DNA of 64,000 nt from NCBI GenBank assembly GCA_963819655.1, contig CAWFXA010000003.1, positions 800,001 to 864,000 of the forward strand, in the 5' to 3' direction. Shown here piece after piece: positions 53,611 to 60,728 of this stretch. The position numbers and the translations under genes are program-made. The number at the start of each line of letters is the position of its first letter. Position 1 is the stretch's first letter. The notes below the pieces were generated by a model. It did not search any database, was not told the origin of the DNA, and worked only from the letters and a program-made list of their open reading frames with translations. Source of the stretch: an uncultured Chloroflexia bacterium. Lineage in GTDB: Bacteria; Chloroflexota; Limnocylindria; Limnocylindrales; CSP1-4.

Positions 53611-54702
53611 CGGGCGATCACGTCCTCCGCGAGATAGCGGTCGAAGCTGGCCCCCGTGATCCGCTCGAATGCCTCGACATAGCGCGCACGGGTCCCGGCG
53701 ATCACGTCGTTTGGCAGCGCAGGGCCGGGCGTCGTCTTGTCCCACGGCTGCGTCTCCAGCCAGTCGCGCACGAACTGCTTGTCGAAGCTGGCCTGGGCGC
53801 GGCCGGGCTCGTAGGTCGCAGCGTCCCAGAACCGCGACGAGTCGGGTGTGAGTGCCTCGTCGACCAGCATCAGCTGGTCCCTGATGAGGCGCCCGTTCAG
53901 CTCGGGCGGCCGACGGCCCAGCGGCTGGCGGGTCCGGCGCTCGAGACGTTCCGCGGCAGGACCGACGGGTTCGCGGTCGATATCGGGCCCGAGGCCCACG
54001 CCGAACTCGAACTTGGTGTCGGCCAGCACGATCCCGGCCCGCGCCGCGACGGCTGTGGCGTATCGATAGAGCGCGATCGCGTGGTCTCGGATGACCTCCG
54101 CGACAGGACCGGCCAGATCGGACGTGACGATCCAGTGTCGTCCGATGTGCTCGACCATCGCGTCGAAGTCGATGTTCTCGTCGTGCTCGCCGCCCTCGGC
54201 CTTCGTGGCCGGCGTGAAGATCGGCTCCGGCAGTCGATCGCTCTCGCGCAGACCGGCCGGCAGCGGGATCCCGCAGACGGTGCCGCGGTCGCGGTACTCC
54301 TTCCAGCCCGACCCGGCGAGGTAGCCTCGGACCACGGCTTCGATCGGGACGACTGTGGCCGGTTGGCAGACCATCACCCGGCCGCGCCACTCGTCGAACG
54401 ACCCGACGCCTCGACGGTCCCGCGGGGGCATCGCCCGCGCGCTCGGTGACATCGATCTCGTACGCGTCACGGACGATGGATGGGTCGGTATCGAGCAGAT
54501 GGTTCGGCACGATCCCGGCCGTCTCGGCGAACCAGAACCGCGACAGCCCGGTCAGCACGCGGCCCTTGTCGGGGATCTCCGTCGGCAGCACGACGTCGAA
54601 GGCGCTGATGCGGTCCGACGCGACGAGCAGCAGCCGGCCATCCGGCAGCTCGTACAGGTCGCGCACCTTGCCCGACCGGAGGAACCGGTCAGCTGTCAGC
54701 AC
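53607..54702 (-). CDS. purC: SAICAR synthase (frameshift near 54420-54450)
   Basis: [49 protein letters not shown]. Confidence 0.92.
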
Positions 54703-56020
54703 GGCTGGCCTCGGTCGTCGGGGCGAGCGTGTCGAGCCGCTCGATGATCGCGTGGACGTTGCGCAGGAACGTCGCCTCGTCGAAGCATGCGTCGAGGTCG
54801 GCGAGCGGCAGGCGCTGCGCCACCACCGGGTCGAGCGCCAGCAGCTCGCGCAGCGGCGCGCGCTCGTCGGCCGCTCGCAGCGCCGCCCGCTGGACGATGG
54901 CGTACGCCTCCTCGCGGCCGATGCCGGCCTTCTCGACGAGCGCGACGAGCACCCGGCTGCTGGCATGCAACCCGAGCCCGCGGGCGATGTTCTCGCGCAT
55001 CCGCTCCGACCGGACGACCAGCCCCTCGATGAGGCCGGTCGTGCGCACGAGCATGTAGTCGAGCAGGATCGTGGCGTCGGGCAGGATCACCCGCTCGGCG
55101 CTGGAATGGCTGATGTCGCGCTCGTGCCACAGCGGCTGGTCCTCGAACGCCGTCTGGGCGTAGCCGCGCAGCAGCCGCGCCAGCCCGCAGATCCGCTCGG
55201 ACAGGATCGGGTTGCGCTTGTGGGGCATCGCGCTCGAGCCCTTCTGGCCGACCTTGAACGGCTCCTGGACCTCGCCGATCTCGGTGTGCTGGAGGTTGCG
55301 GATCTCGGTCGCGATCCGCTCCAGGCTGCCGCCGAGGATCGCGATGGCGGCGAGCAGGGCCGCGTGGCGGTCGCGCTGGACGATCTGCGAGCTGGCCGCG
55401 TCTGCGTGGAGACCCAGCGCTGCGAGCACTTCGGCTTCGATGTCCGGGTCGAGGTGGCTGTACGTCCCGACCGGTCCCGAGATCTTGCCGGTCCCGACCT
55501 CGTCGACGGCGGTCGCGAGGCGCGTCCTGCCGCGATCGATCTCGAAGGCCCAGCCGGCGACCTTCAACCCGAACGTCATCGGTTCGGCGTGGACCGAGTG
55601 GGTCCGGCCCATCATCGTGGTGTCCGCCTCGGCTCGAGCACGAGCGACCAGCACCGTGATCAGCCGGTCGCAGTCGGCCAGGAGCTTGGCGCCCGCTGCC
55701 CGCAGTTGGAGCGCGAGCCCGGTGTCGACCACGTCGCTGCTGGTCAGCCCGTGGTGGAGATAGCGGCCCTCGGGCCCGACCGACTCGGCGACCTGGCTGA
55801 CGAACGCGATGATGTCGTGGTCGGTCGTCCGCTCGATCTCGGCGATCCGGTCGACGTCGACGGTCGAACGCGTCTCGAGCGCCGCGAGCGCTGAGGCCGG
55901 GATAAGCCCCCGGGCGGCCTGCGCTCGGGCGACCGCGAGCTCGACCCGCAACATCTGCTCGAACCGGGCGGTCTCCGACCAGATCCCGCCCATTTCGGCG
56001 AGCGTGTAGCGTCCGATCAA
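54689..56020 (-). CDS. purB: adenylosuccinate lyase
   Basis: TTG start at IGRY; HHGLTSSD; GRTHSVHA; [11 protein letters not shown]; HERDISHSS. Confidence 0.96.
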
Positions 56021-57348
56021 CGACCTGCCCCGATGAGCGCCGCGAGCACCTCCTGGTCCATGCCGATGTCGCGTCGCCGCTGGAGCCCGTCGAACGACAC
56101 GCGATCCGCGGCCGCCTCGGCCTGGACGCGTGCAGCTTCGAGGTCCGGCCCGCCGCCGACGATCGTCAGGATCCGGCCGCCACCCGTTTGATAGCCGCCC
56201 ACCTCGTCCCGCGTCGTCCCGGCGTGGAAAACGAGGGCGCCGGCGGCGCGTGCGGCATGCAGGCCCTCGATCGCGTCGCCGTGACGTGGCGCGTCCGGGT
56301 AGCCGGCCGCGGCCAGCACGATGCCCACGCAGGCTCTGGGCATCGTCGGCAGGCGGTGGCCCTCCAGGTGGAGCGACTTCGTGGCCGCGAGCAGGCGGCC
56401 CTTGGCGGCGGCGAGCAGCAGCGGACCGAGCGGGGCGGCGAGGCGCGGCAGGATCACCTGCGTCTCGGGGTCGCCGAACCGGGCATTGCATTCGAGCAGC
56501 ACCGGACCGTCGGCGGTCAGCATCAGCCCCGCGTAGAGGGCGCCGCGGAACGGGCTGCCGCGACGCGCGAGCTCCGCCAGGATCGGTCGGTGGAACCGTT
56601 CGACGATGTCGTCGGCGAGCGCGTCCGGGAGGTCGTCGACCGGGCTGTACGCGCCCATCCCGCCTGTGTTCGGTCCGGTGTCGAAGTCGGCCAGCCGCTT
56701 GTGGTCACGCGCGGCCGGCAACGCAAGGGCGTCACGCCCGTCGCAGATCGCGATGAGGCTCGCCTCGCGACCCTCGAGGCGTTCCTCGATGACGAGGGCG
56801 CTCCCTTCGATCATGGCCGCGATGGCGTCCTCTGCCTCCGCGATGTCCTCGGACACGGTCACGCCCTTCCCGGCGGCGAGCCCATCGGCCTTCACGACGA
56901 TCCCGCGACCGTCCGCCGCGAGACGTCGGGCGAACGCGTTCGCGACCTCGCGGTCGCCGGCGGCGAAGGCGCCGGAATAAGCCATCGGGACGCCGGCAGC
57001 GAGCGCGACGTCGTGGCAGAAGGCCTTGCTGGTCTCGATCCGCGCCGCAGCGGCACTCGGGCCGAAGACCGGGATCTTTGCGGTTGTGAGGGCGTCCGTG
57101 ACACCGGCCGCCAGCGGCCCCTCCGGCCCGATCACGACGAGCTCCGCCGCGATGGCCCGCGCGACGAACACCACGGCCGCGGGATCCAGCGGGTCGAGGT
57201 CCTTCAGGACGCGCACACGCGGTTCCGTCCCGATCGCGTAATTGCCGGGCCCGACGACGACCTCGTTCACGCCCGGCTCCGCGCTGAGTTTCCAGGCAAG
57301 CGCGTGCTCTCGCGCCCCGCTGCCGACGACGAGGATCCGTGTCGGCAT
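56017..57348 (-). CDS. purD: phosphoribosylamine-glycine ligase (alternative GTG start at 57369)
   Basis: VGSGAREHA, KADGLAAGKGV, DHKR...GPNTGGMG, NARFGDPE. Confidence 0.96.
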   Translation of the reverse strand: MPTRILVVGSGAREHALAWKLSAEPGVNEVVVGPGNYAIGTEPRVRVLKDLDPLDPAAVVFVARAIAAELVVIGPEGPLAAGVTDALTTAKIPVFGPSAAAARIETSKAFCHDVALAAGVPMAYSGAFAAGDREVANAFARRLAADGRGIVVKADGLAAGKGVTVSEDIAEAEDAIAAMIEGSALVIEERLEGREASLIAICDGRDALALPAARDHKRLADFDTGPNTGGMGAYSPVDDLPDALADDIVERFHRPILAELARRGSPFRGALYAGLMLTADGPVLLECNARFGDPETQVILPRLAAPLGPLLLAAAKGRLLAATKSLHLEGHRLPTMPRACVGIVLAAAGYPDAPRHGDAIEGLHAARAAGALVFHAGTTRDEVGGYQTGGGRILTIVGGGPDLEAARVQAEAAADRVSFDGLQRRRDIGMDQEVLAALIGAGR

Positions 57349-57365
57349 GACGAGTCCGGTGGGGC

Positions 57366-58673
57366 TCACGCCGGGATCCCCTGGCGCAGCCGCATCGAGC
57401 GCCACGCCCGCTCGATCGTCTGTGTCCGCTCCGGCCCGACCGACACCAGCACGATCGGGACGCCGGCGTGCGACTCGATCGCCGAGACGTACCCGCGGGC
57501 GTTCTCCGGCAGGTCGCGCAGCGAGCGGATGTCGTTGAGCGGCTCGGCCCAGCCGGGGTACTCGTCAAAGATGGGCTTCGCGCGCGCGAGGGCCGCGCCA
57601 CTCGACGGCCAGGTCTCGATGCGGCGACCGTCGATCTCATAGGCCACACAGATCCGCAGCGTGTCGATCCCGGACAGGATGTCGAGCTTGTTGAGCATGA
57701 TCGAGCTGACGCTGTTGACCGCCACCGCATAGCGCAGCGGCACGGCGTCGAACCAGCCGACTCGCCGCGGTCGACCGGTCACCGTGCCGAATTCGTGGCC
57801 GCGCTCCGCGATCCCCTGTCCGATGCCGTCGAGCAGCTCCGTCGGGTACGGTCCCGAGCCGACGCGCGTCGAGTACGCCTTCATGACGCCGATGACCTCG
57901 TCGACCTGGAGCGGCCCGATGCCTCCGCCCGTGCACGCCCCGCCGGCGACCGGGTTCGAGGAGGTGACGTACGGGTAGCTCCCGTGATCGAGGTCGAGGA
58001 GTGTGCCCTGCGCGCCCTCGAGCAGGACGTGCTCGCCACGCGCGAGGGCCGCCTGGACCAGCCACGTCGTGTCGTCCAGGTGGTCGCGCAGGCGCTCGCC
58101 CCACCCGAGGGCCTCGTCGACGAGCGCATCGACGGTGAATGTCTCGCCGCCCATCGATGACAGCAGGAGGTTCTTGTCCGGCAGCAGTCGGCCGAGCCGT
58201 TCGCGGAGGATCTCGCGATCGAGCAGGTCCTCCATGCGCAGCCCCAGCCGCCACGCGCGGTCGGCGTACGCCGGCCCGATCCCGCGACCGGTCGTCCCGA
58301 CGGCCGCAGCCGCCAGGCGCGCCTCGTTCGCTTGGTCCAGCGCGAGGTGGTACGGCATGATCACGTGCGCGCTACGACTCACCCTGACCCGGGCGACGTC
58401 GATGCCGCGCTCGGTCAGCATGTCGAGCTCGGTGATGAGCGTCAGCGGGTTGACCACGACACCGTTGCCGATGACCGATGTGATGTGCGGGTACAGCACG
58501 CCGGACGGTGTCAGCCGCAGCTTGAAGACCTCGTCACCGCGGACGACAGTGTGGCCGGCGTTGTCGCCGCCCTGGTAGCGCACGACCATCGCGGTCTGCT
58601 CAGCCAGGAAATCGGTCGTCTTGCCCTTGCCCTCGTCGCCCCATTGCAGCCCGACGATCACGGTCGCCGGCAT
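57366..58673 (-). CDS. purA: adenylosuccinate synthetase
   Basis: QWGDEGKGK, QGGDNAGHT, EGAQG, GTVTGRPRRVGW. Confidence 0.97.
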   Translation of the reverse strand: MPATVIVGLQWGDEGKGKTTDFLAEQTAMVVRYQGGDNAGHTVVRGDEVFKLRLTPSGVLYPHITSVIGNGVVVNPLTLITELDMLTERGIDVARVRVSRSAHVIMPYHLALDQANEARLAAAAVGTTGRGIGPAYADRAWRLGLRMEDLLDREILRERLGRLLPDKNLLLSSMGGETFTVDALVDEALGWGERLRDHLDDTTWLVQAALARGEHVLLEGAQGTLLDLDHGSYPYVTSSNPVAGGACTGGGIGPLQVDEVIGVMKAYSTRVGSGPYPTELLDGIGQGIAERGHEFGTVTGRPRRVGWFDAVPLRYAVAVNSVSSIMLNKLDILSGIDTLRICVAYEIDGRRIETWPSSGAALARAKPIFDEYPGWAEPLNDIRSLRDLPENARGYVSAIESHAGVPIVLVSVGPERTQTIERAWRSMRLRQGIPA

Positions 58674-58711
58674 CAGAACGGCGCCCCGGACGGAGATGAC
58701 GAGCGCCCAAC

Positions 58712-58734
58712 AAAAAAGGCCCACAAAGGGCCTT
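58712..58734 (-). terminator. attenuator (intrinsic terminator) in the pur leader
   Basis: Minus strand AAGGCCC-TTTGT-GGGCC-TTTTTT, ending ~40 nt before the purA ATG. Confidence 0.85.
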
Positions 58735-58885
58735 GGGTAGACTGCTCCCGTGGTGCTCCGCCGATGCGTCGGCGGATCGCCGGTGGCTGGTCGCCCGACC
58801 GCCTCACCGGACGGCCGATGCGCCATTCTCGCGCGATCGTTGACCTCCTGTTCACGGGCGGACCCGCTGCGGTCGAGGACGGGCG
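58712..58885 (-). ncRNA. candidate riboswitch in the pur operon leader (ykkC/PRPP-like variant)
   Basis: Multi-stem leader with GGGUCCG...GUCAACGAUCGCGCG and CACC..GGG-loop-CCC-AAGG elements; the last element overlaps the terminator. Confidence 0.6.
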
Positions 58886-58886
58886 G

Positions 58887-58895
58887 AGTATAGCA
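58887..58895 (-). promoter_or_regulatory. extended -10 promoter of the pur operon
   Basis: Minus strand TG-c-TATACT directly upstream of the structured leader. Confidence 0.65.
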
Positions 58896-58994
58896 GCGGG
58901 TGTCGGGCCCTCGTCCATCGGCGGTACCACCGTCGGGAGGTCGCGGTACCACCGGCGGGTCCGTGTGCCCCGGCTCCGCCCCTAGCCTTGTCGG

Positions 58995-60728
<1,734 letters not shown>

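Follow-up and report, generated by a model that had tools for sequence, protein, structure and literature searches.

A conserved leader RNA before purA of Limnocylindria, with a reading frame that extends through its intrinsic terminator

The purA gene of Limnocylindria, which encodes adenylosuccinate synthetase, is preceded by a conserved and previously unnamed cis-regulatory RNA, a conclusion that we regard as well-supported. In the window, by which is meant the whole 64-kb stretch of DNA that was analyzed, this leader lies on the minus strand and is about 150 nt long (58733..58882). Comparison with relatives establishes, at the level of sequence, three components: a multi-helix leader RNA (P1/P1a, P3 with its extension P3ext, P4, and P5) with conserved unpaired bases, an intrinsic terminator directly behind it, and a leader open reading frame (ORF) whose frame is conserved and whose stop codon overlaps the start of purA. 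On balance, we lean toward reading these as a purA-specific, translation-coupled attenuator, similar in layout to that of pyrBI and gated by a riboswitch-like RNA.

Within the Chloroflexota, Candidatus Limnocylindria has the rank of a class; its members are widespread, almost uncultured, and known mainly from metagenome-assembled genomes (MAGs). We know of no work on gene regulation in these organisms. The target of the leader is clear: it is purA, at the branch point that leads from IMP to AMP. Its composite design, comprising a covarying fold, a start codon in a loop, a terminator inside an ORF, and a stop-start overlap, was not found in Rfam or in the literature searched. The leader raises the questions of whether ribosome-polymerase coupling in the style of pyrBI operates outside the Proteobacteria and for purines, of whether a new ligand sensor exists, and of how ribosomes are loaded onto genes of this lineage that have no Shine-Dalgarno sequence.

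Genomic Context and Promoter

The purA gene (57369..58673, minus strand) begins with an ATG at 58673, and its product matches the Pfam family Adenylsucc_synt with an E value of 3e-169. It is followed on the same strand by purD (56020-57405) and then purB (within 54692-56491), both recognized by their Pfam matches. The end of purA is overlapped by purD over ∼37 nt. The longest purB ORF (54692-56491) shares ∼470 nt with purD, and the true purB start is therefore probably located further downstream. Divergent from purA, on the plus strand, is a gene (58995-60725) with GTG as its start codon and no visible Shine-Dalgarno sequence; its product joins a GGDEF diguanylate cyclase domain to an HD domain (HD_5). 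Three elements lie on the minus strand in the 320-nt interval between the two genes: an extended −10 box, a leader rich in G and C, and a terminator hairpin followed by UUUUUU.

The extended −10 box, TGcTATACT, was read from the sequence at 58887..58895 (minus strand), and transcription is predicted to start near 58880. The promoter had been proposed in an earlier note on this DNA. The box itself is present and is kept in the loci of the genus, although a strict −35/−10 scan found no promoter. Our call of a promoter is based on the conservation of TGCTATACT in 28 of the 30 genus loci (the remaining two have TGGTATACT) and on the recurrence of the box ahead of an unrelated gene in two relatives. 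The reading frame of the box relative to that of purA is random (25/28/21 over the three frames), and the box is therefore not coding. The 22-nt stretch that takes in promoter and P1 has no other copies in the window's own genome.

The block seen in the two relatives, CCCGCTGCTATACTCCGGCCG, is promoter-like and lies ∼50-60 nt upstream of the unrelated gene (L256:740-821, minus strand; L257:1-80, plus strand), which we take to encode a protein with an N terminus resembling that of aspartate-semialdehyde dehydrogenase. Its recurrence suggests a strong extended −10 promoter with a GC-rich discriminator that is typical of the lineage.

Conservation and Distribution of the Leader

A fold of the region predicted from the single sequence is not significant (z −1.31), with 18 of 200 shuffles folding equally well, and the case for the leader therefore rests on its relatives. 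Of the 36 genomes from the same genus, 33 have a counterpart of a 200-nt stretch of this region, with 74-84% identity, and all 30 of the genus loci that were fetched have purA downstream. Two covariance models were built, R1 from the sequences of the genus and R2 from 51 diverse leaders, and these match the leader of the window at 144.7 and 124.4 bits, respectively. It is single-copy in its own genome, where the runner-up match of R1 scores 16.6 bits.

Within the family, R1 has a match in 60 of 101 genomes, and in 31 of 49 genera. This tally takes in the window's own genome and one unpublished genome (G140), the sequence of the latter being left out of the analysis. The association with purA is close: 54 of the 61 matches sit 45-200 nt upstream of a purA start, the other seven being made up of six weak matches (<27 bits) that are not before purA and one at a contig end. 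Divergent copies of the leader in four genera, present before purA, were missed both by the DNA search and by R1. Counted by family with R2, the leader was detected in nearly all genomes of one family of the Limnocylindria, f1 (41 of 44), in one of 50 of f4, and in none of the six genomes of f2, the 49 of f3, or the single genome of f5. At the level of the phylum, R2 matched all three f1 genomes and none of the 147 others.

A pattern scan of 185,579 species genomes matched at least 120 stretches and, among the matches listed, most are titled Candidatus Limnocylindrales, Limnocylindria, or Chloroflexota MAG. From the matches listed, 22 stretches, most of them under other taxon names, were tested with R2, which identified five as real and 17 as chance; three of these five listed matches are titled only Chloroflexi/Chloroflexota, and two are MAGs titled Anaerolineaceae and Anaerolinea.

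The sole f4 genome with a leader (G320, locus L128) encodes a PurA of the f1 type, 64% identical to that of the window. The PurA proteins of five other genomes from f3, f4, and f5 are 44-48% identical to the window's, and in the two of these that were read, one from f5 and one from f3, the leader is not present before purA. G320 may have gained its purA by horizontal transfer together with the leader. A separate case is that of genome G113, in which two different copies of purA are found on separate contigs (L043 and L099), each with a leader of its own (106.9 and 64.3 bits); these could be paralogues or the product of a mixed bin.

A metatranscriptome contig of 238 nt (run X17) covers 58713-58940 with six differences, such contigs being silent on transcript ends, strand, and level. 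There is no Rfam family for this leader, and no paper on it was found in the full texts searched.

Secondary Structure and Covariation

Within the genus, 93% of cells are paired, and compensatory changes are found in P4 alone. The genus is thus too conserved for a test of covariation, and an alignment of 51 sequences from the family was used instead. RNAalifold on a MAFFT alignment recovered only five pairs of P3; the other helices were placed by hand, and the pairs were then counted. Conservation and covariation are both evident in the purA leaders of these relatives, with 80.9% of cells paired and changes on both sides in 23 of 31 pairs. Compensatory cells number 124. Shuffles gave 51 ± 9, with 0 of 500 attaining 124, and controls in which the partners were slid by one to three columns gave 31-54; the count carries the caveat that the sequences are related.

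The dominant element is a long hairpin formed by P3 and P3ext (58788..58825, minus strand; −22.6 kcal/mol, z −2.8), with the apical loop CGGUGA (consensus CCGUGA) and compensatory changes in 13 of its 17 pairs. Beyond a variable linker comes P4 (58755..58780, minus strand; −15.6 kcal/mol), a hairpin with an AU bulge in which six of seven pairs have such changes and which is absent from a reduced variant of the leader, L115. Next is the junction ACG-GGGAG with P5 (GGG/CCC; 58735..58754, minus strand), which has the loop AGCAGUCUA and the family consensus GACGnGGGnGnnGUCUAUCC, and whose pairs are kept without compensatory change. At the other end of the leader, P1 is a predicted sub-fold in which CCUC (58878-58875) pairs with GAGG (58847-58844), spanning 58844..58878 on the minus strand. 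The hairpin that it encloses, P1a (58867-58854, minus strand), varies freely in sequence and length across the 30 species of the genus. One pair of P1 is convincing (15/60 of alignment A3: U-A in 22 sequences, U-G in 14, and C-G in 10); the register of the helix is fuzzy, and inside the genus it is invariant. The 3′ strand of P1, GAGG, is part of a perfect Shine-Dalgarno-like AGGAGG (58849-58844). P3 with P3ext, P4, and the terminator hairpin are each predicted to fold independently in the sequence of this genome. In terms of predicted structure, then, P3/P3ext and P4 are solid, and P1 and P5 are without clear compensatory support.

Other pairings were considered and rejected. A hairpin designated P2 (GCGC/GCGC, 58835-58832 with 58824-58821) is perfect in the genus; elsewhere, its pair is G-C in 38 sequences, U·C in 20, and U-G in four. 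It competes with the better-supported P3ext and is kept as a possible alternative fold. Candidate pseudoknots between UCCCG of the P3 loop and CGGGA of the junction, between UCGCGC and GCGCGA, and between CCGUG and CACGG have no compensating changes and are broken in several sequences. No conserved alternative pairing, whether antiterminator or anti-sequestor, was demonstrated in the leader alignments.

The most conserved bases of the leader are unpaired: CCGUGAG in the P3 loop, GAUCGC/AUUGC after P1, and GACGnGGGnGnnGUCUAUCC. The leader thus combines covarying secondary structure with conserved unpaired nucleotides, as riboswitches in general do. An invariant loop and junction (CCGUGAG and GUCUAUCC) would be as fitting for a protein site as for a ligand pocket, and a purine-responsive RNA-binding protein, for which a PyrR-like protein is the model, might recognize them and so stabilize or melt P3. 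We consider this highly unlikely: the locus is not linked to any gene for a candidate regulator, its neighbors being purD, purB, and the divergent GGDEF-HD gene, and the size and number of the helices exceed those of typical protein operator hairpins.

Relation to ykkC and Other Purine-related Riboswitches

The earlier note had read the leader as a candidate ykkC/PRPP-like ON switch built on a ykkC scaffold, perhaps an undescribed variant or one with another ligand. The strings from which it argued are all to be found when the minus strand is read (TGcTATACT at 58895-58887, GGGTCCG at 58865-58859, and CACCACGGGAGCAGTCTACCCAAGG at 58755-58731), as is the hairpin CCGCCGA-cgca-TCGGCGG, confirmed at 58775-58758. 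The interpretation placed on them fares less well. A cmscan of the whole 64-kb window with all 4227 families of Rfam 15 gave zero matches at gathering score. When restricted to 58600-59050 (451 nt) and relaxed to E ≤ 10, it returned three chance matches of 12-15 bits, two of them to the terminator, with no ykkC, ZTP, or Purine family among them; for eight diverse homologous loci at E ≤ 1, nothing relevant was returned. Membership of ykkC-yxkD (RF00442, including the subtype 2 RNAs for PRPP/ppGpp) is accordingly rejected, there being no covariance-model match in the window or in homologues, and so is membership of the ZMP/ZTP (pfl, RF01750) and Purine (RF00167) riboswitches, for which there is likewise no such match.

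The conserved core of ykkC-yxkD consists of GGGUUCCG-type and GACCGAG-type sequences, and these are not conserved features of the purA leader. GGGUCCG (58865-58859), which had been assigned to that core, makes up the loop of the variable P1a hairpin, and most of the 30 sequences from the genus read differently there. The hairpin CCGGUG...CACCGG, also pointed out in the note, does form in the single-sequence fold but is confined to this genome and not maintained in its relatives, and the helices deduced from covariation form a different architecture. The suggestion that AAGG is shared by two mutually exclusive folds is not supported, because AAGG is the base of the terminator and overlaps no conserved aptamer helix; nor does the evidence favor an ON over an OFF switch. 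Two points speak for a divergent ykkC subtype 2 riboswitch of the PRPP type, namely the association of the leader with purine genes and a loose likeness of CGGGAGA to the 3′ part of ykkC, which was compared through Rfam. Set against the lack of a ykkC-yxkD match even at E ≤ 10, or in eight homologues at E ≤ 1, against a GGGUCCG that is not conserved, and against a different helix architecture, they leave it with a negligible probability, and we take membership of the ykkC family to be refuted. What stands is the broader proposal of a regulatory leader for the pur operon: a conserved, structured, terminator-containing leader is kept before purA, and it is likely that it controls the purA operon.

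The Terminator

Directly behind the leader RNA is a 7-bp GC-rich hairpin followed by U6 (58710..58734, minus strand; −12.8 kcal/mol, z −3.5). With seven pairs, five of them GC, and then TTTTTT, it has the form of an intrinsic terminator ahead of purA, in agreement with the earlier reading. It is the one terminator-like site between 58400 and 59300, where 0.1 would be expected by chance. In nearly all loci of the family, a hairpin and U-run are found directly 3′ of UAUCCnG, with stem sequences that vary. The sole possible pairing between the 3′ part of the aptamer and the arms of the terminator is GGGA/UCCC (4 bp), which is invariant.

The Leader Open Reading Frame

The leader ORF (58673..58807, minus strand) comprises 44 codons and a UGA, and its conserved frame spans P4, P5, the terminator, and a variable spacer. 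Its proposed start codon is a GUG (58805..58807, minus strand) in the apical loop of P3, in frame with a stop codon, UGA (58675-58673), that overlaps the AUG of purA (58673-58671) as UGAUG. The columns of the loop GUG are 90-100% conserved. Among the 30 genus sequences the codon is GUG in 25, UUG in one, and non-canonical in four (GAG twice, GCG, and GUA), two of which carry an in-frame AUG in the linker. A homologue from another family, f4, has AUG at the homologous codon together with the ORF, and the ORF persists in genera g10, g7, and g16.

At its other end, 65 of 81 loci have a stop codon of the −1 frame that overlaps the start of purA (TGATG in 56, TAGTG in five, and TAATG in four), and in several further loci there is a TGA one to three bases upstream of that start. 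The type of stop changes along with the type of start, UAG occurring with GUG, and it is thus the stop itself that is the conserved feature. Relative to the overlapping stop, frame is constant for the P3 loop in 58 of 62 loci and for UAUCC in 59 of 61. In 60 of 71 sequences, the GUG and UAUCC are 62, 65, 68, or 71 nt apart, so that the spacing changes in increments of three. Upstream of the P3 loop, a short variant breaks the frame, with 23 instead of 30 nt, so that conservation of frame begins about at the loop.

These regularities were checked against a validation set of loci that had not been used to form the idea, consisting of the 83 unique pattern-scan loci with purA downstream among the matches listed. 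In 74 of these 83 listed loci, the distance from the GUG to purA is 2 mod 3, with 37 different values between 116 and 452 nt. Again among the matches listed, the frame first meets a stop at −2 in 51 of the 83, at +13, which is within purA, in 19, and between −6 and −3 in seven. From the loop to purA, the GUG frame holds three stops in total and is open in 81 of the 83 listed loci, compared with 26-105 stops in each of the other five frames (two sense and three antisense), which are open in 23-62 of them. Coding in an antisense frame or in that of purA is rejected as the source of the 3n spacing because of the 26-105 stops that those frames hold among the matches listed. The purA frame itself is open in 54-57 of the 83 listed loci, and openness alone is therefore weak evidence in DNA of 70% G+C. 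All of these loci are related, and the counts overstate their independence. A TTTT run falls within the leader ORF in 56 of the 83 by a strict regular expression, among the matches listed.

A functional conserved peptide is rejected as the reason for the ORF. Variation is alike at the three codon positions (0.195, 0.181, and 0.173), and the peptide tails behind the terminator are unrelated among loci; what is kept is consequently the open frame and not a peptide. As for where translation would begin, AGGAGG lies 36 nt upstream of the loop GUG, and no Shine-Dalgarno sequence is found at the usual distance from that codon. A near-cognate codon (AUC/AUU), in frame and situated 6 nt behind AGGAGG, was considered as the start and rejected: it is GUU in many sequences and is out of frame in the short variant. 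We infer that the ORF is translated, and from the start codon in the loop. The purA gene has no Shine-Dalgarno sequence of its own.

In 12 of the 30 genus loci, an inverted-repeat element of 120-170 nt is found between the terminator and the purA start, in both orientations (L002:1345-1480, minus strand, and the same position in L003, L006, L017-L019, L021, L022, L024, L025, L027, and L030). It is a dispersed repeat, of which two genomes, one of them the window's own, each contain at least nine copies at 78-88% identity. Where it lies before purA, its frame and orientation differ between loci, and it never closes the leader ORF.

The reduced leader of genus g16 (L115:2778-2922, minus strand) has P1, P3, and UAUCC, and is without P4 and without a terminator. 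Its leader ORF of 22 codons keeps both the GUG and the UGAUG and ends ∼30 nt after UAUCC. This variant resembles a form of the device that acts through translation alone.

Such a variant bears on another explanation, in which the leader is an ordinary riboswitch that terminates transcription and belongs to a new class. The RNA would bind a purine-related metabolite, its 3′ end would compete with the terminator, and the ORF would only deliver ribosomes to a purA that has no Shine-Dalgarno sequence, or would be translated from read-through transcripts alone. A multi-helix RNA with covariation and invariant unpaired bases, a terminator that abuts the last conserved bases, and a strict tie to a single biosynthetic gene are what such a riboswitch would lead one to expect. 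However, no conserved complementarity between the 3′ part of the aptamer and the terminator arms was found, and the start codon is located in the most conserved hairpin. Moreover, the g16 variant keeps P3, GUG, and UGAUG without a terminator, which makes the ORF, and not the terminator, the element that stays with the fold. We therefore think this explanation unlikely.

A Proposed Mechanism

In the translation-coupled attenuator that we favor, 30S subunits would start at the loop GUG, and the resulting ribosome would trail RNA polymerase. As it did so, it would cover the 5′ arm of the terminator, such that the hairpin could not form, and at UGAUG it would pass to purA by reinitiation, where no Shine-Dalgarno sequence is available. 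Were the start codon instead locked in the 17-bp P3/P3ext helix, there would be no ribosome, transcription would terminate at 58710-58716, and purA-purD-purB would be off. P1, a helix resembling that of a Shine-Dalgarno sequence with its anti-Shine-Dalgarno, may add to the locking. That a large covarying RNA surrounds the start codon suggests that initiation is regulated. The conserved fold would most likely choose between the two states in response to a purine-related signal, either a bound metabolite, as in a riboswitch, or nucleotide-dependent pausing. A point against such a relay is that poor initiation would be expected of a start codon that lies in a hairpin loop, the hairpin being one of −22.6 kcal/mol, and that has no properly spaced Shine-Dalgarno sequence.

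The first of the two signals corresponds to a more specific proposal, which we put forward as possible but doubtful: that the leader is a new class of riboswitch for a metabolite of the purine pathway, with the ribosome relay as its expression platform. The start codon would lie in the loop of the aptamer, translation of the ORF would erase the terminator, and the stop codon would hand the ribosome on to purA. Candidate metabolites include nucleotides of adenine or guanine, IMP, adenylosuccinate, and ppGpp. If this were true, a single RNA would couple metabolite sensing, translation initiation, transcription termination, and reinitiation.

The second could, in principle, dispense with ligand binding by the RNA altogether. 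In a purine counterpart of pyrBI/pyrE attenuation, low ATP/GTP would slow the polymerase, the ribosome would catch up, and the terminator would be suppressed, with the hairpins acting as pause signals. The layout of pyrBI (PMC5021804) is matched by a leader ORF that runs through an intrinsic terminator just before the gene. Nevertheless, no A- or G-rich tract comparable with the U-tracts of pyrBI is visible in the alignments, pause hairpins would need no 150-nt multi-helix structure with invariant junction bases, and a start codon locked in a hairpin argues for regulated initiation. We judge such nucleotide-sensitive attenuation to be decidedly unlikely.

Comparison with Known Systems

The pyrBI (pyrL) and pyrE genes of enteric bacteria are controlled by ribosome-mediated, UTP-sensitive attenuation, and U-tracts are a feature of the pyrBI leader. 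In the E. coli pyrBI system, translation across the pyrL leader peptide must be tightly coupled if the terminator is to be kept from forming (PMC5021804). More generally, intrinsic terminators are repressed when they lie within or just behind a translated gene (PMC4824070). The likeness of the purA leader to pyrBI/pyrE is one of layout, with no homology in sequence to be expected: a leader ORF (58807-58673) extends through an intrinsic terminator, the attenuator hairpin at 58734-58710, just before a gene of nucleotide biosynthesis. Unlike pyrBI/pyrE, the gene here is one of purine synthesis and the organism belongs to the Chloroflexota, the stop codon of the ORF overlaps the start codon of the structural gene, and the ORF starts in the loop of a large covarying multi-helix RNA. 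A homopolymer pause tract is also not evident, none being visible in the alignments between the ORF start and the attenuator (pausing itself is not readable from sequence).

The mgtA, ribB, and lysC riboswitches control Rho-dependent termination through translation. They share with the design proposed here a fold that hides or exposes a ribosome start and the principle that the presence of the ribosome decides the fate of transcription. Whereas they act on the start of the main gene and on Rho, the purA leader would use a separate ORF and an internal intrinsic terminator.

As a cis-acting leader before purine-related genes, the purA leader resembles ykkC-yxkD (guanidine-I and PRPP/ppGpp/ADP) and ZMP/ZTP (pfl). 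The ZTP riboswitch consists of two sub-domains joined by a variable linker, and the purA leader is similarly arranged. In contrast to both of these classes, it has no match to an Rfam model, and its conserved sequences and helices are different ones.

In the trp, his, and leu attenuators, regulatory codons stall the ribosome before the terminator and so choose between alternative hairpins. A short leader ORF and an intrinsic terminator before a biosynthetic operon are common to these and to the purA leader, but in the latter the terminator lies within the ORF, the encoded peptide is not conserved, and no run of regulatory codons is seen. The purA leader is an unusual composite design, a variant of known attenuation and riboswitch mechanisms.
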